Program-made: the position numbers and the translations under genes
Shown: positions 1-14,776 of the stretch, piece after piece
How positions within the stretch are numbered: the first letter of the stretch is position 1
Layout: each line of letters begins with the position of its first letter
Notes under the pieces: model-generated
The model's database searches: none
What the model saw: the letters and a program-made list of their open reading frames with translations, nothing else
Told to the model about the DNA's origin: nothing
Origin: Sarea resinae
Lineage: Eukaryota
DNA length: 64,000 nt
Reading direction: 5' to 3'
NCBI GenBank assembly: GCA_026026165.1
Contig: JAPEUD010000104.1
Coordinates: forward strand, 1-64,000

Positions 1-127
1 CCTAACCCTAACCCTAACCCTAACCCTAACCCTAACCCTAACCCTAACCCTAACCCTAACCCTAACCCTAACCCTAACCCTAACCCTAACCCTAACCCTA
101 ACCCTAACCCTAACCCTAACCCTAACC
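1..127. repeat. Telomeric repeat array (CCCTAA)n, left chromosome end
   Basis: About 21 perfect CCCTAA units from base 1, ending ...cctaacc|gttccc. This is the canonical TTAGGG telomere of filamentous ascomycetes. Confidence 0.99.
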
Positions 128-1466
128 GTTCCCAAGTCGCATCGTGAATTGCCCATCCGCGCCACTTCGCAAGATACTGTTCATGGCGATTGTTGCCACG
201 TCCCACCATTTTGCTGCGGATGATCCGCTCGACTTCCCATTCCTGGTAGTCGATATCTTGTCCGATGCCTTCGTTGTGCTCTTTCTCTTTCTCGTTCTCG
301 TTCTCGTTCTCATCATCATCATCATCCTTATCGTCGTCGTCATCGTCATCGACCCTGAGGGGAGAGAGAGAAGCCGAGCGGGAGGGGGTGGGGCTGGGCA
401 GGGGAGGGGTTTCTTCTTCGTGGCGGTGGGATGCGAGGTAATTAAACATCTTGTCCTGCATACCCTCTGACATCTCGCTGTCGTCGTGTGTCAAGTAGTA
501 GGACAAGTCCTTGGGCTCGGCCTCGTCGGTTCCGGCCCCAGTCCCATCTTCTGCCGTTTCCATTTCGGTGTCCACGTCCGAAATTTGGGTCGTATCGCCT
601 TTAAGCTCCGATCTTGCATCATTCATTTCCATTTCGTCTCCATGGGAGCTCTCCTCCACGAACGAGCTGCTTCGATCCTCGTCGACGATACGGTCCTGAG
701 CTGCCGCGGCCGCCACCGCCGCTTCTTGATCCTCCCGGAGCTTTCTCGCGGTCCTGTCTTGTTCCTCCAATTGAGCCAGCCAGAGATGACTTGGGAACAT
801 GGGAGTCTCGTCCGCCATTGTCAGTCTCTCCCGTACCAACGTCAATCCTCGGTGGCATTCCTCGAGAGTGATCCGCGGGTCTGAACCCTGAGCTACAGGC
901 TTGATGGCACCGAGTACGATCCTCAAAGCCTCCCAATTTCTCCGTGCTCTCTTCAGAAACTCCAGGCTATGGACATGTGGTATCTTGCCACGTGACTCTT
1001 CGGTTTCTTGGATCGTCTCGATGGCATCGCGGCAAAGCTGTGTGGCGACGTACAATCCACTGGGATCGTCATAGTGATTCAGGTGATTTCTGATCCGGCC
1101 GTCGTTCTGGACCTGTTCTCAGGTCAGCTCGAACAAGGATTCTCGGGAACTCTGACATACCTCTAGCTGACGCGTTTCTACCATGGTAATGATCTTTTTC
1201 AATTCGTCCTTTTCTTGTCCGTCTGGTAGAGAAACCCAGATGTCTGGTGTCATCAGTGAAAGAGCGTCCAGTGACATCTTCAACAAGCCACAATTTCGAA
1301 CCACTGCGTATCTTCGCTGTTTCCGAGTGGTTGCTTGCTCCCGCTCTCGATACAATTCGTTGACAACGGTGCAAAGGTGTAGCACGTCTGCCATATCCTG
1401 CGCCAGCTTAGGGTGATCGACTTTTCGAAAAGGTCCGTCGAATTTTTCAGGAAGGGAGGCTGCCAT
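128..1466 (-). CDS. Chromodomain-containing protein, 3'-truncated by the telomere (no stop codon)
   Basis: Exon 1 is 1466-1161. A 48-nt phase-0 intron at 1160-1113 (GTATGT...GCTGAC...ACAG) removes the TGA that ends the listed ORF. Exon 2 is open from 1112 to base 1. The ~430-aa product has an acidic D/E tract, then YQEWEVERIIRSKMVGRGNNRHEQYLAKWRGWAIHDATWE (chromodomain, ~248-129), then R and (LG)n from the telomere. Confidence 0.85.
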
Positions 1467-1787
1467 AGTGCCGAGATTCGTACTTGATCGAAAAGTTGGT
1501 GATCGCGCTGACGAGCAGGTTGACGAGGATGATCAGAGAACTACACGATGTCAAACATCGGTAGGAATGAGAGCATCAATCAAAATCAATGGTAGTCGTC
1601 AGAAGTGATGCAATGTGTGCGGGTTTTCCGGATGCAAGACCACCTTTAGGGTTTCAAACCCCGAGACACACAGGTCACTCTGAGTGAATATCCGTCGAAC
1701 GTCTCATTTGGGTGTTGTCCGGTATTCGACTATACTTCCGGTAGTTTTGACAAGATTCGTTGAACGTCTCATCTACTTGGGTCATCT

Positions 1788-1978
1788 GACGTTTGACTTC
1801 GACTTCTCTGACGTTTGATATCAACTTCCTCCGACGTTTGACATCAACTTCATCAGACGTTTGACTTCGACTTTGACTTCGACTTCGACTTTGACTTCGA
1901 CTTTGACTTTACCAGACGTTTGACTTCGACTGCATCTCACGTTTGACGTTCGACCTCATCAGGCGTTTGCCTTTCGAC
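1788..1978. repeat. Degenerate tandem repeat, ~22-24-nt unit GACGTTTGACTTCGACTT.. with an internal (GACTTY)n expansion
   Basis: Several copies of gacgtttga(c/t)(t/a)tc(g/a)actt, with a run of gacttc/gacttt hexamers at 1863-1910. It lies in the divergent intergenic region between two subtelomeric genes. Confidence 0.85.
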
Positions 1979-2516
1979 TATCCGCTCAGCGTACCATCCA
2001 TCATCACCCGTACGAGTTGTTCAGTCAAGGCTCACTGCTCCTCTCATACTCGACCTGATCATCTACGTCACGATTGCCGTTGATCTTGATTCCCCTCCAT
2101 CCTACCGATGTTTGACATCGTGTAGTTCTCTTATCATCCTCCCCAACCTGCTTGTCAGCCCGATCACCAACTTTACGAGCAAGTACGAGTCTTCCGTGCG
2201 ACGAGTCCACGAGCTTCAGTCGGCGAAGTCTAGCCCACGATTCCCGGTCCACGGATTCACAGCCTTCTAAATCCTCTTGTAAGTCTTCCATGATCAAGTG
2301 TCATTTTTCGTCTTTCCTTTTACCTGACATGTTCCGTGTCTTCCATAGTCATAATCGTGATGGCCACGCAAAAGGCAGCAACGACCAAGCGGGTTACAAG
2401 CTCAGAACAAGAGTTAATAAGGTTCCAAAATTATTGTTAAGTGAAATAAAGGAAGTTATTATCGTGAGGAGCGAGACGATCATCACGTCGGTATCTCGAA
2501 GATCTTTTTCCGTCCG

Positions 2517-3228
2517 ATGAAAGAGTACCAGTCCAAGGGCCTCCAATTGATATACGACCAGAGTCTTCATGCGGATTTCACCGTGTCAGCAACCATCCAC
2601 CGCAGCCCCGAGACCAGCAATTTTGCCGTTGCACTCGATTGTCTTCAAATCACCCCGACAGTCCCCACCGAAAAGTCGGTTGCGCAATTCCTCTATCCAT
2701 CCACGAATTTCATCATGGGATTCAGGATGCTCAGCAATAGTCGAAGCCTCGAGGTCTGGAGGACCGCAAGGGTTCCGAATACGGCCGAGGTAGATCCATG
2801 ACAAATCAAGGCAATGATCTTTACTGACAAGATAACAGGTCGAGTCCGACATATGGTCCCTGCAATTCTGCAGAACGACGAGGCCGGCGGCCGAACAGGC
2901 CGTGGCAATGTGGTATCGGCTCGAGTCAATCCTGAGAAAGACGACCAATAGCCAGCTCGAGTACGTCAACGTCACCCGCGCCAGCATCAACAACAAGGAC
3001 ATCGCAGCAGACCGCTATAATCTGCGGGGTCAGAAGACACGAACGCCTCAAGAAACTTCAGGAGGATCAATGACGTGGGTGGTTCACAACAAGGAGGGCC
3101 CGCCAAAGGGTTACGAGTTCACGAATAGGCTCGCAAATCCCAAGCTCGTGGCAATGATGGAAAAGCTAGACTTGAACGACGACGACGTGGATCCGGATAT
3201 TGAAGGTAGCGAAAGAGAAGACGAATGA
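2517..3228 (+). CDS. Hypothetical protein (~220 aa; possible PH/EVH1-like fold)
   Basis: ORF 2517-2789 joins ORF 2902-3228 in frame through a 49-nt intron at 2790-2838 (GTAGAT...TACTGAC...AACAG). The true 5' end may lie further upstream (the frame is open back to ~2445). Confidence 0.65.
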
Positions 3229-4014
3229 GTTGGAAATAGCGACAGAGAGTTTCTGCGGGATGTGAGGTCATCATAAGAATGCCTGGGAACGTTTTGCTAC
3301 GGAGAGGCTTTTGAGGGCGAGCATGGCGGTGTGCATAGACAAGCTGTCGTTGAGAGTCGCTTCTTTTCTCGATGAGATTTCGTTTGCGAGCCAGATTCGA
3401 GAAGCCCATATGGCACGATGACGAACGAATCAATTTGATGCTTTCCGATATCTTGCCTTGAACATATTGAGATGATCTAGCTAATGAGGTGTGCGTTGAC
3501 TAATCAAGCACGTGACTAGTCTCAGGCAGTCATCAATTACCGTGTGTGTAGTAGTGACAATCAGCTAACCCTGTACTGCGAGACTAGAAAGAGTAGATCA
3601 CAACTTGCAACAGGAATGTTATTCTCTCGACCCACGCCAGCCCTTCTTGCAAAACGCCGCACCAGATCCCGCACACTAAGGTAGGTATCCTCCTGGCTTC
3701 ATCATTATTTGCAACACAGTTAGCGCGCTTCCTTGCCTCCCTCGATGGCCCTTCCACTAACCCAAGCCCTTAATCTGTCCTTGACGCTCTCTAGATCTGT
3801 AGCAAGAAGCAGAGCGGAGTCCTGATACATATCAGCAATCATAAATCCTATCACACTAGGCAGGCAAAAATCCGACTAAGCAACAATCCTATCAATCAAC
3901 AACAGAAATCCCACCTCTTAAACGCACAAAGTTTAGCTCCGCTGCAAATTCTATCCTTTCTCTGTTAAATACTGCTACGAAAGTCACAATGCCACTGGTG
4001 GCACTTTTACAATA

Positions 4015-6680
4015 TCAAGCGGATCTTGCCTAATCGGTTGCCTGCTTAGCGGCTTTATCACTAGGTATCGTGCTGCTTGCTTGACGATACTCTAGTCGCG
4101 CCTGTTTGAAAAGTCGTTCCCTGTGTGAAAGCTGTTCAATCGTCGGTCCAGAGGATAGAGCTAACTCGACAAGGCTTTGTGCAGCAACTCTGGCATTTTC
4201 TGGAATAGCCACTGATGTAGCTTTTTCGCTGACCCACAGTTCTATCCCCTGTGCTCAGAAGGAAGTCAACAGCGCGAGTGAAAACTTCTGTATCCAATGT
4301 CAGCATTAATACGTATTGGTATGACTTACTTCGCCTGTGGCTGTCATCTTCTCTAATTCTTGCCTGACTAGAGGCTTGAGATTTAAGACCCCTGATCGCT
4401 CAAACCCCTTCGCTAGGTTACAGTCCACTTGATTAATAGCGTATTTTGATTTTCGTGCAAGCTTCGCTGTCTCTCTTGCCTTCTATTGCCCTAAGCCCTT
4501 TTTAATCTGATCTTCTCTCTATAAGGGGTGTAATTCTCGAAGGCGCTCAAGGTAGACTAGGCTGTAATCAGTCAAGGCATTAAAGACATCTAGCAGCGTT
4601 AGGCCAATCCATTCCAAACCCTGCACGTCTGTATCCTCGAGACCTACAGTGTCATCAGAGACCTATACTTGAGGTTGGAAAACAGTTGGAAACCCTGGTA
4701 GTCGTGGTCTGAAAAGAACAGAAAGGGCAACAAGAGGTTTATGTCATCCTTTTGCAGCAAGCACAGAAACTCTCGCGTTGCGCAGTCGGCGAATCCAGGC
4801 GTCTGCCAGGATCGTTAGAATCCCTGCTTCAACCTAGAAAACCAAGAGGCACTTACTATGACTATGATCATTCCTTGGAGTTCCTTCCGATGCTCTTGAA
4901 ACGACGTTCTAATATTTCCATGCTCGGTCACGATTATCCCTCTCAACTGCCGGTCGACATCTCTTGTCGCTAGCTTCTCGACTATGTCAGGGATCAGGCA
5001 CCGTCCGCGAAGCTTTGTCTTGGTTGTCTTTTTGCTGCCCTTGCCTCGAAAGATAAAGATGTCGTCAACAACGTCTGCTATGATGCTGACTCTCTCAGGA
5101 AGATAAATCTCTCCGGTCGATTGTGCTAAAAACCCAAAGGCTTTTGAGTGCACCCTAACTGTAACAGCCTAATTATCGATGCGTTGCCGGATTTAGACTT
5201 AGGTGAAGTGTTTCTCTAGGCGGAGGAAGTATCTAGCTTTTCGAAACTTCACTGCTTCTTAGGCTCCTAGCATGGCTATGATCTGTTTTCCAACCGCCAG
5301 AAATTGGAAGAGCTATAGCAAGTTGGCTTCAGTGGTCCGCAAGGTTATTTCCCCTCTATGAAGCGGTTGCCCGCAGCTCTCGCTGTGGCCTCTGCGGCTA
5401 GCCTTCCTCTATTGCCAAAGTTCCCTGAATGCCTCTGTATGACAACGATGAATTGCAGGAAATTAGGAGGTTGCAGAGGTTCAGAGGCAGCGGCTGTTGG
5501 CTTTTCGTCCCCTTCCTCTTCTTTGGCCTTGATGGCTACGCCGTTATCATTCGGATTGTTCTCCACGAATTGGCAGAGCGAATCGACGAATTGCCTAATA
5601 CAATCGTCTTCTGGAGGGGGGATTAGGAGCGGGAGGCGGTGGACTGTGTGACTGTGGCGGCGCAGACTAGGGGGTGTATGCCTGTAGAGAGGGCGAATGT
5701 GCTGGTTCTACTGCTTCTGCTGTCGCTGCCGCTTCTGCTGCTCGTCTCCTCACCTGTCTTCCGCTGTTTCTAAAATTGCCAGAGTGCCTCTGTATAACCA
5801 CAATAAACCGTAGGACGTCTCGGTTCCTCTGTCAAGGCTAAGGCCTTATCAGTAGCCAAGTGCATGTGCTAGGGTGCTAGCACTTAGAGCTCTCTCGCTC
5901 CCACTACAGCCCTTTGCTGTCTCGATATACAACGCCCTTGCTGCCCTCGCTGTCGCCTCTGCATGCGGCCTACCGCCTTCGCTAAAACCACCTAAGTGTC
6001 TCTGTACTACCACGATAAACCGTGGGACGTCTTCTGTCCTCTCAGTCCTAGGTTAAGGCGTCCTAGTTTAAGGCGCAGGAACTATCGTCGCTAACACTTC
6101 TGCTGCCTTCTGCTCTTCTTCTTCCTTGTCCTTGATTGCCCTATCCTTACCTCCAGTGTAGCCATCTTCTTTTTCTGCCTTGATAGGGCTGTCTTAGAGG
6201 TGTCTGGCAGGGGAGGGTAGTCTGGTGACAGCAGCAGTGGACTGGGTGATAGTGGCGGCCGAGATTTGCCCTTCCGCCCTCCTAAAAGCTCCTAGAATGT
6301 CGCTGCTAGCGTCATCTCAGTAGAAGGTTGCGACGCGGGAACTATTAATTTTAGAACCCCTCTCGCTGTCTTGACATCGTTGTCCTCAGCCTTTATAGCC
6401 ACTGCTCAGTCAGGTCAGGCACTAGGCTGTGCCAAAGTTAGCGGGGGTTTTGTGCCACTAGAGCCGACAGAAACAGCGACTAAGGATAGGAACAGGAGTG
6501 GCATGAACAGGCGGATGCTAAGAGGTTATTCACTACATCTTTGTCTTTCGGGTTGTTCTTAAGTCCTTGGTCTTAGTAGCCCTATGCTCTTCTTTTGCCT
6601 TTATTGCGAAATATTTGGCTGTGATAGCTACGTCCTTGGCCGGCTTAGGAAGGATAGAAGGATAGAAGGGGATGTGGCAT
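4015..6680 (-). pseudogene. RIP-inactivated, divergent Spo11/DNA topoisomerase VI subunit A-like gene with a repeat-rich N-terminal extension
   Basis: Reconstructed minus-strand reading: LFQFLAVGKQIIAMLGA*EAVKFRKARY (Tyr at 5229-5231) ...HFT*V*IRQRIDN*AVTVRVHSKAFGFLAQSTGEIY ...GRCLIPD ...RGIIVTEHGNI ...MIIVI|TPGFADCATREFL ...LPFLFFSDHDYQGFQLFSNLKYRS ...LEWIG ...PLVRQELEKMTATGE|KFSLALL. Introns are at 4856-4803 and 4329-4288. Most stops are TAG/TAA derivable from CAG/CAA/TGG. Frameshifts occur near 4620, 5350 and 5670. Start and end are approximate. Confidence 0.8.
5370..6050 (-). repeat. Three dispersed copies of a ~35-codon repeat within the Spo11-like pseudogene
   Basis: ~5370-5460 NFLQFIVVIQRHSGNFGNRGRLAAEATARAA; ~5720-5830 DVLRFIVVIQRHSGNFRNSGRQVRRRAAEAAATA; ~5925-6045 DVPRFIVVVQRHLGGFSEGGRPHAEATARAA. 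Confidence 0.8.
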
Positions 6681-7180
6681 CGGTAGGCTAGGTGTGTCGC
6701 AGGGCATAACTAGCCGTGAGAAAGGAAACAAAAGTGGCATCGACAGGCAGATGCTGAGACGTAATTAGCCACATGTTTAATTTAGGGGTTGCTCTCTACT
6801 AACTCGATTCCTCGGCATATACAGCCACATCCTCACCGCCGATATTATCATCTTCAGACCAGGACCAGACAATTTAAACCATTTGGACCACTAGACCAGT
6901 AAACGATCAACAGCGCTGCTCTCAAAGACCAGGACTTCCAAGTTGGCCTTTTCCGCTTCTCTTCTCGCAGTCGCCTATCAGAGCAGTGTCTCGTAGGTTT
7001 GATTTGGCAGAAGCTAAAGAATCACCTTTTTTTCTCTCGCATCTTCTCTTTAGTAGTCGAGTAGGTTTGGTCATGTCCAGAAGTATCAGAGTGGTTGTTG
7101 CTTTAGACGCTGCAATCGTTGTCGATTCTGTCGCGGCGCAAATGTCGATCAAGACCCTCTGGATAGAGATAAGGGTACAG

Positions 7181-7303
7181 ATTGACGGTGAATTGACGGT
7201 GAATTGACGGGTGAATTGACGGGTGAATTGAAGATGTGACTGGAATGCTACTTGCGACTTCCGACTTCCGACTTCCGTCCGGCTCTACCACGGCTCTACC
7301 ACG
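7181..7303. repeat. Cluster of short tandem duplications at the subtelomere/core boundary
   Basis: (ATTGACGG[G]TGA)x4 at 7181-7230, (CGACTTC)x3 at 7255-7275 and (CGGCTCTACCA)x2 at 7280-7301. Confidence 0.85.
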
Positions 7304-7408
7304 AGCGCCAAGGATTCTAGATCAGAAATACCACGAGCTTTGCAAATAATCACCGTCGTATGGTGTACTCCGGAGTACTGTTACTGCAAGCAAATCTCTG
7401 CCATCAAG

Positions 7409-8485
7409 ATGCCTCAAATACTCAAATTAGGCGTTGCGCAGGCGCGCACGCGTTCGACGAGGTCGGAAACGCTGCAGGCCCTTGCAGTGACAACGCAGAA
7501 AGCGGCATCGCGGGGAATAAAACTGCTGCTGTTCCCCGAGGCGTATCTGGGTGGGTATCCCAGGACGTGTACTTTTGGGGCGGCAGTGGGTGCGCGTGCG
7601 CCAGAGGGTCGGGATCAATTCTTGCACTATTTCAGAGACGCGGTGGACCTGGGTGACACGCCGTCGGGCGCGGGTGATGCGTGGGTAGAGAGAAGACTGC
7701 CGCTACCAAAGGACGGTGGGATGAGGGGAGATGGGACGCGAGAAGAGCTCGAGCGCATCGCCAAAGCGACGGGTGTGTTCATCATCGTGGGCCTTGTAGA
7801 GCGTGCGGCCGGCTCTCTGTATTGCGGCGCCGTGTACGTGTGTCCGAGAGAGGGTATCATCGGGAAGCGGCGCAAGGTGATGCCTGTACGTAGTTTGATT
7901 CGATTTTTTTCCATGTGCTGACAGATCCAGACTGGCAGCGAACGCCTCGTCTGGGCACAGGGCTCGCCGTCGACGTTAAAGGCCGTCACGACAACAATCT
8001 CTGGCGTGAAATTGACTCTGGCTGCGGCAATCTGCTGGGAGAACTTCATGCCCCTGCTGCGTCACTCGCTGTATTCTCAAAATGTCAACCTCTACCTGGC
8101 GCCAACAGCGGACGCGCGAGAGACGTGGTTGTCCTTGATGCGGACGGTGGCGGGTGAGGGACGGTGCTTCGTGTTGAGTGCCAACCAATGCGTGAAGAAG
8201 AAGCATCTTCCGCCGTGGGTAATCAGTGAGGCTTCGACCGCGGTTCAGGCCTCGTCGCCCGAGGACGAGGATTTTGTCTGCCGCGGAGGGTCGTGCATCA
8301 TCGGTCCTCTTGGCGAGGTGCTTGTTGATCCTGTGTGGGAGGCTGAGGATGAGCTAATAGCGGTGGAAGTTGATTTTGACGAGTGCGAAAAGGGACGGCT
8401 GGATATGGATGTGGCGGGAAGTTATTCCAGGAATGATTCTTTCAAGTTGACGGTGGAAGGATTAGATCTAAACCCTCCTCCTTGA
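7409..8485 (+). CDS. Nitrilase (carbon-nitrogen hydrolase family)
   Basis: Catalytic triad motifs [11 protein letters not shown] (E), [17 protein letters not shown] (K) and [11 protein letters not shown] (C), plus the C-terminal [10 protein letters not shown]. Intron at 7886-7930 (GTACGT...GCTGAC...CCAG). Confidence 0.95.
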
Positions 8486-10204: not shown

Positions 10205-12100
10205 ATGGCAATCCTCCACATAGGTCAACTATCTGAATGGCTCCGTTCCGTGCCCTCGAGACAAAAGCAAAATGCCTGGTTCATCTTGGCAACCGTGTAA
10301 GCCCGACTGAGAAAATTGCGGCAACTCCGTGCTTCATGCGGTATGTGCTCATGCAAATTCGAGTCAACCAGGTGCTCCGCAATGTTTCTTGATCTCGCCA
10401 ACCTCAGTGCGATCACGATTGCTTTGCCGACCATTCAAAAGGAACTCCATGTCAGCATTAGCAACTTGCAATGGATGATCTCAGCTTACGCCTTGACTGT
10501 TCGTGCCCCTTCCCTCCCCTTTGAGCAGCTTAGAGTTAAAATGTACAGTTTGGAGGCTTCTTGATGCTTGGCGGACGTGGAGGAGATATATTCGGGTTTG
10601 TCGATAAGATCCGTTAATTGTCAACATCTCATCGTGTTGTAGACATCGTCCAGTTCTCCTTTTCGGCATGAGTTTCTTCGCGTTATTCACCCTTGTTTGT
10701 GCTATGGCGCCGACATTCATTGGCCTCGTCATTGCGAGAGCGTTTCAAGGTATTTTACTCTATCGATATTATTCCCTTTTCTGACAGCGGGCAGGAATTG
10801 GAGCAGCTTTCACGATTCCTTCGGCGCAAGCCCATATTGCACTCCACTTTCCGGTCCCCGCGAAAAAGGCCACGGCACTGGGTTTCTGGGGGGCGTCAGG
10901 CTCTCTTGGTTTCATGTTAGTACTTTTCAAACGTCGATGCTTGCCCATCTGATCAACAGCCTCGGACTTATCCTAGGTGGAGTCCTCACGGATCTTCTTG
11001 GATGGCGCTGGATCTTCTGGGTCTCATTGATCTTCTCCGGCGTCGTGATTCCAGCGGCATTCTTCACTCTGCCGTACGCTGATCGTACTCACGGCCGTAC
11101 GACAGCCCCACCAGAAGATGCCGAAGCGGACGAGGGCCATCCTGTCCACTCGAGAACGCTGCTCCAGTCGATCAAAGAACGGCTGATCCGCTTCGACGCC
11201 ATCGGGATCGTCCTCGGCCTCCCCGGCATTCTCGTTCTGACCTACGCTCTCACGTCATCCAACACGAATGGCTGGGGATCTCCTCAGATCATTGCTACTC
11301 TGGTGGTTTCGGTCTTTCTCCTGGCATTGTTCGCGCTGCATGAACGTCGAGCAACCTCGGGAATCTTGGCGCCCCACTTGTTCCGCTCTATGAGCTTCAA
11401 CTTGACCTTGGTCTTGGCCGTCATCACGTATGCTGTTCGTCAGTCGTGCACGTATTTCCTCACCGTCCAGCTGCAGTCTTTCGGGAACAGCCCTATCCAC
11501 ACGTCGGTACTCTTTCTGCCTCTTGGAATCAGCGCCTTGATCTCCAATAGCATAGCCGGACGTCTGGTGCCACTCTTTGGAGCCCGGGCCATGTTCATAT
11601 GGGGCTGGGCTCTCTCGATGCCTGGCGTGCTTCTGTTTGCATTCATCGAGGATGATTCATCGTATTGGCGATTTACCTTCCCGGCCATGATACTTTACAT
11701 TGCGGGGATTGGTGCCGTCTATATCACCGCAAACTTTGTCGTGGTATCATCGGCATCAAAGTCGGACCAAGGTGCTGCCGCGGGCGTGTTTAACGTGGCT
11801 CTCCAGGTCGGCGGTTCCGTTCTTGGCCTTGCCATCTTGACTGCAATTGCGCAGGGCATGGAGAAACGCTATGGCCCGCCGCATAGAGCAGCCGGTGAGC
11901 TGACTCATGTGGGCTATAAAAGTGTGTATTACTCATGTGTGGTCCTCTGCGGTCTTGGATTAGTACTGAGCGCATTCGCCATCAACGTACCGGAAAACAT
12001 GAGGGGAAGTATTTGGAGAAAGCCTGTTCCTGCGGTGGAGGCCACAATCGAGCGACGGGAGGTTGATGCAAGATCGAATGAGATCGAGCTGAGTGGATGA
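10205..12100 (+). CDS. MFS drug:H+ antiporter, DHA2/Atr1-like (about 14 TM)
   Basis: Spliced N-terminus ...AMFLDLANLSAITIALPTIQKEL..LQWMISAYALT|FGGFLMLGGRGGDIFG|HRPV...ARAFQ|GIGAA; GLILGGVLTDLLGWRWIFW; DQGAAAGVFNVALQVGG. About five introns between 10297 and 10960. Confidence 0.92.
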
Positions 12101-12518: not shown

Positions 12519-14360
12519 CTACATCACCCGAACCTGCGGAGACGGTATATCTTTAAACTGCGGGATGACACCCATCTTCTGCACAAACTCATCCATGGAT
12601 GGTTTAAAGGGCCACCCCTCCCACGCGACCGCAATCTCTTCAAACATCTCCGGGGTCAACATGCGCACCCTCATATCATCGAGGTCGAGCCGGCCGCCTT
12701 TGAACGGATTGCGAATACTCAAACAGCGAGGGAGGATATAGGCGGACGCGCCAGGCGCGAGAGCTTCCAGTCCTTCGCGGACGGTTTGCTTGGGCTGGAG
12801 GAACAAGAGGGATATGATATACGTATAATAATCGTAGACGTCAGAGGAATCGCGGAGACGTGGTGGCAGAGGTTTGGGCTGAATGTCCAGAAGAGCGAGA
12901 GGGACTTCCGGGAGAAATTCGTCAGGCTCTACGTTGAGAGGCTCCTGTGTCCGGCGGTCCCACATCAGGGTTGGGACGTCGGCCTCGAGGGCGCGCTTAT
13001 CGTCCGAGTAGAGCAGGATTCGGTCACGATCATTGGTATTCAAATTCTGTAACTTGGCATCCACATTCTTTTTGAGGTCTTCCCAAGGCTTTCGGATGGC
13101 CTCCGCGTCAGAAGATGGCCTCCCTTGTGCAACGGCCCGTTCAAGCCGATATAGATGATCTTGGTCCTGTCGTGACTGATCAAGCCTAGCTTGTCCTTGC
13201 AACTCTCGCCGCACATCACGCTCGAGCTGAAGGAGTCGGGCGTATTCAGGAGTAGCAGTACGATAGACACCCTTCTTTTTGCCTAACCGTCCGGCGATCT
13301 TGCTCTTTTTACCAGTGTCCAGTTGAGAGCTAGATAGAGTCGGCGGTGGATCCGTCTTGTATTTGGCCAGCTTGTTCTCCATAAATAATTGTCGGAGAGC
13401 GTCCATCTCTCGCTGTGCTTCTGATTGCTTGGTACCAGTGCCCCAAGACGATTGGCTGTGGACCGGCCTTTGGAGTTCTCTTTGCCGGTGAGATGAACAT
13501 GTCTTCGTGGACTTCAAAACTCTGGCCATGCTCTCCATCTCAAAGTCTGGATGTCTCGAGATGCTCCTCTTTGAGCTTGACGCGCATTTCTCCTGCATTC
13601 CGGCTATTTCAAAGATACGAGATGATGTCTCCGCAGTAACGGCGACTTTCCGCCGATCCGCTACTGCTTTTGGCAGGGTGAGCTTTTTATCTTGATCCGG
13701 TATCCATATCAGCATTCGCACCAGACCATACGCTTGAAAGATTGCATGCAGAGGTATAGCCGACAGAAGCTGGCTGACCAACAGATGCGACTCCGAGCCA
13801 AAGGTTCCATATTTCTTGGGTGGATGGCTGGCGAGAGTCGCCAAGAAAAGCAGAGAATTATTTGGCTGATCCAATCTGGCATCTCCAGCGGGCAGAACGT
13901 TTTGGTGCGGGAGTAGGCCTTCGTCCATCAGGCGACGATAGGATGCCCATTCGAAGCCAGAGTATGGAGCCAATCGGTACCGTGAATCGGGACGATCAAG
14001 CAGAGGCTTGAGGAAAGGCTCGTAGAGTGTAGCATCCGGCTCCAGCAGTATATGACTTCGAGGCTTGACGTGATCATGGAATTTAGAGGACCACAGGCCG
14101 GGGCCGGGATTGACCTCGATGATGTCGCAGTTTTCGTGGCGCTCCAGCGAAGGGGCAAGGTGGTCTAGAACATCATCTAGCGCAAAGTGTGAGCACCAGC
14201 ACATATGAGAAGGCATAGGGTGCATGTTCCCTTCAAACTTACCACATAAGCTAGAACTCACAATGTTGACTCTCTTCCTGTCGCCTGGGACCTTCCTCGG
14301 TCTACAAGCTCGTCTTGCGGCGAGAGTTGCGGCCAGAGGAAAGCGCGTCGTCATGGACAT
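12519..14360 (-). CDS. MTF1: Mitochondrial transcription factor Mtf1 (rRNA adenine dimethylase-like fold)
   Basis: RVNIVS..LC|DDVL...CDIIEVNPGPGLWSSKFHDHVKPRSHILLEPD and C-terminal MRVRMLT...WEGWPFKP; Arg-rich presequence-like N-terminus. Probable in-frame 66-nt intron at 14242-14177. Confidence 0.85.
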   Translation of the reverse strand: MSMTTRFPLAATLAARRACRPRKVPGDRKRVNIVSSSLCGKFEGNMHPMPSHMCWCSHFALDDVLDHLAPSLERHENCDIIEVNPGPGLWSSKFHDHVKPRSHILLEPDATLYEPFLKPLLDRPDSRYRLAPYSGFEWASYRRLMDEGLLPHQNVLPAGDARLDQPNNSLLFLATLASHPPKKYGTFGSESHLLVSQLLSAIPLHAIFQAYGLVRMLIWIPDQDKKLTLPKAVADRRKVAVTAETSSRIFEIAGMQEKCASSSKRSISRHPDFEMESMARVLKSTKTCSSHRQRELQRPVHSQSSWGTGTKQSEAQREMDALRQLFMENKLAKYKTDPPPTLSSSQLDTGKKSKIAGRLGKKKGVYRTATPEYARLLQLERDVRRELQGQARLDQSRQDQDHLYRLERAVAQGRPSSDAEAIRKPWEDLKKNVDAKLQNLNTNDRDRILLYSDDKRALEADVPTLMWDRRTQEPLNVEPDEFLPEVPLALLDIQPKPLPPRLRDSSDVYDYYTYIISLLFLQPKQTVREGLEALAPGASAYILPRCLSIRNPFKGGRLDLDDMRVRMLTPEMFEEIAVAWEGWPFKPSMDEFVQKMGVIPQFKDIPSPQVRVM

Positions 14361-14776
14361 TCGGTGCTTGAATGCATCGAGGCAACAGGTCGTTGACTGC
14401 ACAGATTTGTAGATGCAGGATCCTTGGAGGGTTAGGGTAATACGAAGAGTTGGCTGTGCAAGATGATGGGGAAGGTGATGGGTAGTGGGCGACAGGCGAT
14501 GTTGCGAAACAAAGATGTTGAAGCTTTGGATTTCGAGATACGATTAGATACGATTAGATACAGTGTGATAAGATAAGATGAGATATCCTCGCCCCACCCA
14601 ACCGACTCCTCCACGTCTCTCAGTCCGTGGGCGATCCTCGACCATCTTCGATGTTGTTTGGCTGACGCGTCCCATAGGACAATGGACGACGCCCTCGAAC
14701 TTCCTCTCCCTCCTCTTCTTTATCCTCAACAACCTTATTGATAGATTGCGAAACCGTGGCATCCGTCTCGGCCACC

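Follow-up and report, generated by a model that had tools for sequence, protein, structure and literature searches.

What kind of gene once stood close to this chromosome end, and what became of it? The DNA in question, called the window below, is a stretch of 64,000 nucleotides from Sarea resinae (assembly GCA_026026165.1, contig JAPEUD010000104.1, positions 1 to 64,000). It begins with 21 copies of CCTAAC at 1..127, a telomere repeat that makes base 1 the chromosome end, so a broken reading frame found on the minus strand lies 4-5.4 kb from the telomere, in the subtelomere. An earlier note, made from the letters alone, had read this frame as a divergent gene of the Spo11/topoisomerase VI-A (Top6A) type that was inactivated by repeat-induced point mutation (RIP). 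Our analysis makes it very likely that the window copy is a dead representative of a multi-copy family, specific to its lineage, whose full-length Spo11/Top6A-like proteins occur in several classes of filamentous ascomycetes. The pseudogene taken alone is ordinary, and the interest lies in the family that it reveals.

The broken reading frame and its fungal relatives

All the motifs listed in the earlier note were recovered on the minus strand at the same positions (Table 1). The same holds for its two introns, which carry canonical fungal signals and whose excision gives a gap-free alignment with relatives, as where removal of intron 1 joins IIVI to TPGF. Its reading of the frame stood for motifs and introns but overlooked an extra frameshift of one base near 4620 and the absence of a detectable N-terminal part. 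A hidden Markov model (HMM) of the relatives described below follows the pseudogene from 5363 to 4620 (profile positions 59-290, 184.5 bits) and then, in a second frame, from 4620 to 4057 (profile positions 291-451, 62.1 bits). The N-terminal domain of the family, which takes up the first ~58 profile positions, was undetectable in any frame upstream of 5363 (best E-value 0.18 on 6 sequences). There are nine premature in-frame stops, eight of them TAA or TAG and one TGA. Two of the stops, at 4646 and 4485, occupy columns that are Trp in the majority of relatives, and two more, at 5315 and 5171, stand opposite a Trp of the closest relative; all four are of the TGG to TAG type. These stops and the frameshift disabled the gene, together with a 5' part that was lost or replaced and an Arg at the site of an invariant Gly, all of which agrees with its having been called inactivated. 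Judged from its sequence, the window copy is to all appearance a pseudogene without present function.

The relatives were found with a read-through query (P0004) of 228 residues, in which stops were written as X and the in-frame intron was included. A phmmer/HMMER search of 1.84 billion proteins with this query found 75 matches at E<=1e-3, of which 21 were at E<=1e-10. The best of them was P0005, a protein of 493 amino acids with an E-value of 6.5e-30 and 45% identity. Similarity of this kind to fungal 'hypothetical proteins' is far in excess of chance. Thirty relatives were taken into the alignment A1 and the family HMM, longer sequences being chosen and short fragments among the 75 omitted. 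Other searches returned little. The read-through had no match in a word-index protein search and just a chance-level match (E 1.1) when compared directly with PDB sequences, and a word-index search with the family alignment returned P0005 alone among 8000 scored candidates, a result that is uninformative on family size. A single-protein query of prokaryote genomes gave one 41-residue match, in a metagenome-assembled genome of Verrucomicrobia (L012).

A source name is available for 16 of the 30 clusters looked up, and all 16 are Pezizomycotina. Among the sources are Teloschistaceae lichens (Gyalolechia, Variospora, Teloschistes, Caloplaca and Pyrenodesmia) and, further, Bacidia, Ramalina, Cirrosporium, Phaeomoniella, Lithohypha, Capronia and Sarea resinae itself with two proteins. 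Nearly all of these members are labelled 'hypothetical' or with a domain name alone. P0033 (815 amino acids, Teloschistes flavicans) has a C-terminal extension of ~350 residues, one stretch of it rich in Cys/His and other sequence of low complexity and rich in Lys/Glu, which may be a fusion or an artefact of the gene model. P0046 from Capronia coronata lies on a contig of 4.6 Mb and is tagged A1O1_00005, which hints at a place at the very start of the scaffold.

The two Sarea resinae proteins, P0005 and P0006, are intact paralogs, and they carry the same organism name as P0086, a protein identical to part of the window. In the window, tblastn with 79 family proteins found a single matching place, 4033..5363, and the contig of the same run that carries the locus is identical to the window across the entire stretch. 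Another contig of this run matches collinearly at 4532-4614 (83 nucleotides, 14 differences) and at 4688-4715, and this fragment could come from a paralog already known. A quick maximum-likelihood tree of 34 rows, built from A1, P0033, P0084, P0085 and the pseudogene and without canonical fungal Spo11, unites the pseudogene in one clade with P0005 and P0006 (Shimodaira-Hasegawa-like approximate likelihood ratio test, SH-aLRT, 98). The intact paralogs, the shared clade and the fragment on another contig all support the earlier inference that the gene is multicopy. Elsewhere in the family, Gyalolechia, Pyrenodesmia and Teloschistes each have their members split among separate clades. Metagenome contigs add to this, with relatives encoded on 11 of 139 candidate stretches and 2-3 distinct loci in single assemblies.

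Fold and catalytic-type residues of the family

Structural comparison was made with P0005, the closest intact relative, and not with the broken window copy. The profile of A1 (30 sequences) matched the Top6A structure 1d3y of M. jannaschii with an E-value of 1.1e-14 over profile positions 74-347, which takes in the tyrosine and the Toprim domains, and the R and Y columns of the family align to the R and the second Y of REAYY in 1d3y. Other matches were 2zbk (S. shibatae Top6A, 3.6e-10), M. mazei Top6A (1.6e-8) and yeast Spo11 8urq (3e-5). An AlphaFold2 model of P0005 computed with A1 reached a predicted local distance difference test (pLDDT) score of 90.1 and a predicted template modelling (pTM) score of 0.84. 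The ten best PDB chains returned for this model by Foldseek, a comparison that the earlier note had proposed, are all Top6A or Spo11. VIA-align superposes it on M. mazei Top6A with Z 29.1 over 338 residues (root mean square deviation 3.1, model residues 17-435) and on yeast Spo11 with Z 22.5 (model residues 18-431). The nearest clusters in the ESM Atlas are likewise all Spo11/Top6A.

On the level of domains and residues, 12 of 12 full-length relatives exceed the cut-off of the Pfam family PF21180 (TOP6A-Spo11_Toprim), with 33-61 bits vs 24.1, and the cut-off is also passed by open reading frames (ORFs) in the loci L005, L008, L009 and L010. The Toprim Glu, each Asp of the DxD motif and the Gly of KYGS are present in 30 of the 30 rows of A1. 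Of the 25 rows spanning the R-x-x-x-Y motif, 24 keep the Tyr and 23 the Arg, and P0046 is the sole row with Ser replacing the Tyr. The window copy itself retains the R, Y, E and DHD codons and has Arg at the invariant Gly. Profile, Pfam (for the relatives) and structure (for P0005) all agree with the divergent, non-canonical Spo11/Top6A-like identity first proposed for the locus. For the intact relatives, model and alignment show a predicted Top6A/Spo11 fold together with the conserved Tyr of R-x-x-x-Y, Toprim Glu and DxD. Given the Pfam, profile, structure, Atlas and conservation results for the relatives, it is very probable that intact members are active as enzymes of Top6A/Spo11 type that cleave DNA. 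They would cut DNA as Top6A and Spo11 do, the Tyr attacking the backbone while Mg2+ is held by the Toprim residues, and would leave a 5'-phosphotyrosyl link. A Top6B-like or GHKL-type gene was not seen in the flanks of the loci examined.

Several points weigh against placing the window copy in a Spo11/Top6A-like family of this kind. Its read-through scores 18 bits on PF21180, which is under the cut-off, so the assignment of the family rests on the relatives. TP6A_N (PF04406) is above its cut-off in none of the 12 relatives, the one weak match having an E-value of 0.006 and 16.9 vs 26 bits, although the profile-to-structure alignment of A1 does span the TP6A_N domain. The tree is a quick version, and its branch to the pseudogene is long (1.52). 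Finally, we infer that the gene is a 'paralog of SPO11' from copy number and divergence.

Alternative readings of the gene and of its damage

The Toprim half of the protein could suggest a nuclease of the JetD/MksG/DUF2399 type instead of a Top6A/Spo11 homologue, and there are weak overlapping Pfam matches to JetD_C and DUF2399, a few of them just above cut-off (P0033, 25.3 vs 23.4 bits). These matches are weaker than PF21180, which is always the top match, and lie on the same stretch. The fold match to JetD/MksG (Z 11.6-11.8) covers the Toprim half alone (residues 147-432), whereas that to Top6A runs over the whole length and includes the Tyr domain, which leaves this identity extremely improbable. 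It is also very improbable that the window copy is the canonical meiotic SPO11 of the genome in a decayed state, even with P0044 from Phaeomoniella auto-labelled by its source as 'putative meiosis-specific topoisomerase spo11'. Canonical SPO11 would be expected as a single copy, and here two intact paralogs and a pseudogene occur under one organism name. PF04406, above cut-off in none of the relatives, is found as TP6A_N in 95% of a 641-member ascomycete Spo11 cluster of the ESM Atlas. A survey of lichen fungi, in its account of the Lepraria reference genome, has spo11 among the nine meiosis-specific genes identified there (PMC11515122). Because the pseudogene groups with two intact paralogs of the same organism, and because single genera span distant clades, the window copy does not appear to be a decayed canonical SPO11. 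The earlier note had also raised the possibility that the gene served a mobile or selfish element of the subtelomere as its nuclease; this is unlikely, if less so than the two identities just discussed. The idea draws on a family that is multi-copy, patchy and fast-evolving, on loci that sit among NACHT/ankyrin, AAA-ATPase, Ulp1-protease and 2EXR genes, on a chromodomain ORF downstream on the same strand both in the window and in L010, on pieces of gene-adjoining repeats that recur on other contigs, and on the locus tag 00005 of the Capronia coronata member. Against it, no transposase, integrase, reverse transcriptase or terminal repeats were found around the pseudogene and the loci, independent groups of loci share no flanking DNA, and the two chromodomain ORFs are alike in the chromodomain alone (E 0.076). 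Telomere repeats were present in 0 of 11 metagenome loci, a subtelomeric position being demonstrated for the window copy alone, and the copies within one organism are old (34-45% protein identity) and not the products of recent transposition. A dead member of a lineage-specific Spo11/Top6A-like family is the reading we keep.

The cause of the damage is less clear than the identity of the gene. RIP had been proposed, and its usual thresholds are a TpA/ApT ratio of about 0.89 and a (CpA+TpG)/(ApC+GpT) ratio of about 1.03. TpA/ApT is raised, at 1.00 in the pseudogene (4030-5363) and 1.29 in the repeats upstream (5364-6900) vs 0.56 at 20000-64000; TA dinucleotides number 55.5 per kb in the pseudogene vs 22-35 in neighbouring intact genes of the window. 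The raised TpA density, ~1.8x that of the rest of the window, is restricted to about 4000-7000, and CA+TG dinucleotides stand at 122 per kb in the pseudogene, below the 136-154 of homologous coding sequence at six other loci. Where the window differs from conserved columns, 16 changes could be single C>T or G>A steps vs 4 in the reverse direction, and the stops at Trp positions are all of the TGG>TAG type. Ordinary neutral decay without RIP, in which loss of function is followed by the usual G:C-to-A:T bias that produces TAA and TAG stops, has these features against it, and in its favour is that the substrate ratio (CpA+TpG)/(ApC+GpT) is not lowered but equals the window background (1.22 vs 1.22). 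The 16 changes are spread over contexts (CpA 6, CpC 5, CpT 4, CpG 1), the adjacent repeats differ by 42 transitions to 48 transversions, and G+C content is little lower, at 0.47 vs 0.53. The damage is also not confined to C>T and G>A transitions, since the conserved columns also have the 4 changes in reverse, 12 transversions and 11 changes of more than one step, and there is a frameshift, which RIP cannot produce. No duplicate of at least 80% identity over more than 83 nucleotides was seen in the contigs of the same run, where matches span just 28-83 nucleotides, and in runs of related organisms (X2, X3) only pieces of 36-37 nucleotides match the stretch. We give neutral decay alone somewhat less than an even chance. 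That mild RIP, possibly spreading from the adjacent repeats, was added to ordinary decay has about even odds; it would then account for the point mutations that are biased from G:C to A:T and create TpA. In favour of the earlier proposal stand the TpA excess, the 16:4 bias, the eight TAA or TAG stops, the TGG to TAG changes and the GGG to AGG change in KYGS; the ratio at background level, the frameshift and the absence of a close duplicate among the contigs searched do not fit it.

Surroundings of the locus and comparison with known systems

Between the telomere and the pseudogene lies an ORF that ends in a chromodomain at its C-terminus. Its identity to P0086, named from Sarea resinae and marked 'partial' in its source, is 100%. 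The ORF runs directly into the telomere repeat and looks like a gene that was cut by a chromosome break and healed with a new telomere; it is given here as context only. Reading through all three minus-strand frames of 1500-4014 gave no Pfam match. On the other side of the pseudogene the degenerate direct repeats encode, on their minus strand, the peptide FIVV(I/V)QRH.G.F..GR..AEATARAA three times, and three further contigs of this run have short pieces of them, with matches within 5376-6033. Short tandem repeats at 1788-1978 (periods of 23/24, 12 and 6 nucleotides) and at 7181-7303 (periods of 12, 7 and 11 nucleotides) bracket the region of raised TpA. Further inward the genes look ordinary (Table 1).

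Table 1. Features of the Spo11/Top6A-like pseudogene and of its surroundings in the window, numbered from the first base.
Feature	Position	Strand	Remarks
Spo11/Top6A-like pseudogene body	4033..5363	-	family profile positions 59-451 of 462
FRKARY	5246-5229	-	Tyr 5231-5229
R-x-x-x-Y of 5Y-CAP domain	5229..5243	-	codons of Arg (5243-5241) and of the putative catalytic Tyr (5231-5229) intact
VRVHSKAFG	5159-5133	-	motif
GRCLIPD	5006-4986	-	motif
VTEH with Toprim acidic Glu (4925-4923)	4920..4931	-	intact; Glu in 30/30 family rows
Intron 1, 54 nt	4803..4856	-	GTAAGT..CTAAC..CAG, in frame
TPGFADCATREFL	4802-4764	-	motif
DHD, Toprim DxD metal-binding motif	4701..4709	-	intact; both Asp in 30/30 rows
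KYRS (family KYGS)	4659..4670	-	invariant Gly (30/30) to Arg, AGG 4664-4662, G>A in TpG context
One-base frameshift	4615..4625 (near 4620)	-	between profile positions 290 and 291, between KYRS and LEWIG
LEWIG	4617-4603	-	motif
PLVRQELEKM	4374-4345	-	motif
Intron 2, 42 nt	4288..4329	-	GTAAGT..CTGAC..CAG
KFSLA	4287-4273	-	motif
Terminal TAG after ...AAKQATD	4030..4032	-	frame end
Telomere repeat, CCTAAC x21	1..127		context; puts the locus in the subtelomere
ORF with C-terminal chromodomain	3..1532	-	downstream of pseudogene; Pfam Chromo E 1.6e-8, profile 1-35 of 53
Degenerate direct repeats	5369..6264		upstream of pseudogene; units ~5369-5666, 5714-5885, 5934-6264, 68-75% alike
Carbon-nitrogen hydrolase (nitrilase-type)	7232-8485		further inward; split by intron or frame change; ordinary-looking gene
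MFS transporter	10643-12100		further inward; ordinary-looking gene
Protein with rRNA adenine dimethylase-like domain	12519-14543		further inward; ordinary-looking gene

The neighbours of other family loci are of several kinds. In L010 (8186-13122, 19400-19891) an ORF for an Ulp1 (C48) protease lies upstream of an apparently intact family member on the opposite strand, and on its downstream side come a chromodomain ORF of the same strand, after 240 nucleotides, and an AAA ATPase, after 8 kb; an Ulp1 ORF is also present in L005. We considered the chromodomain ORF as a partner of the family gene and rejected it, the window and L010 ORFs having just the chromodomain in common, and the ESM Atlas held no usable relatives for the one in L010. 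AAA ATPase genes directly adjoin the family gene in L008 (same strand) and in L009/L002 (inverted). Two related loci have NLR-like genes of the NACHT(NPHP3_N)/ankyrin type, at L008 1647-3380 and L009 382-1449, on the upstream side of the Spo11-like gene and ~7-9 kb from it.

The family is apparently undescribed and distinct from typical meiotic SPO11, and our literature search found no description of this fungal family in main texts. The main text of PMC11302465 has none of the words 'fungi', 'fungal', 'Ascomycota' or 'orphan', and PMC6652019, in its text as indexed, mentions Spo11 just in the methods on algal meiosis genes and in the reference list. A separate multi-copy clade that is Spo11/Top6A-like and keeps the catalytic-type residues raises the question of what controlled DNA breakage it might serve and with which partners. 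The double-strand breaks made by Spo11 render it a dangerous enzyme. What the window adds is that copies of the family can occupy chromosome ends and can be inactivated, and that one organism has both intact and dead members. One could go further and suppose that at least four classes (Lecanoromycetes, Eurotiomycetes, Sareomycetes and Xylobotryomycetes) hold an undescribed second Spo11/Top6A lineage, multi-copy and fast-evolving, that keeps the catalytic-type residues and works outside canonical meiotic break formation, with RIP silencing those copies that come to lie in chromosome ends rich in repeats. This wider proposal is speculative and we consider it rather unlikely as a whole, but if true the second lineage could be, for example, the DNA-breaking effector of a selfish element, of a meiotic driver or of an NLR-linked conflict system.

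Among known systems, meiotic Spo11 (S. cerevisiae 8urq/8uru and ascomycete Spo11) shares with the family its fold, its catalytic-type residues and its place in eukaryotes and in fungi, and supplies the nearest ESM Atlas clusters by features. It differs in being a weaker profile match than archaeal Top6A, and the family has an N-terminal region of its own (LDWR motif), a DHD of HxG type and EH(R)N signatures. Opisthokonts, to which both fungi and animals belong, are also described with a single SPO11-1 (PMC9665070), whereas the family has several deeply diverged copies per organism. Mini-A and Topo VIII (PMC7671362), as they are described there, are likewise Top6A-like proteins that stand alone or are atypical and that lie outside the canonical roles of topoisomerase VI and Spo11; they are bacterial or archaeal and are carried on plasmids and integrated elements, and the likeness drawn here is one of description. 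JetD of Wadjet and MksG resemble the family in the Toprim half, with weak Pfam overlaps, but are bacterial and their match excludes the Tyr domain of the family model. Archaeal Top6A (M. mazei 9o0g, M. jannaschii 1d3y, S. shibatae 2zbk) differs in that the family is fungal and multi-copy, falls below the PF04406 cut-off, has 11-16% identity to the solved chains and is without a Top6B-like gene beside the loci examined. It is nevertheless the best sequence-profile match among solved structures, in the form of 1d3y, and it has the same whole-chain fold, with R-x-x-x-Y, Toprim Glu and DxD all aligning with those of the family.

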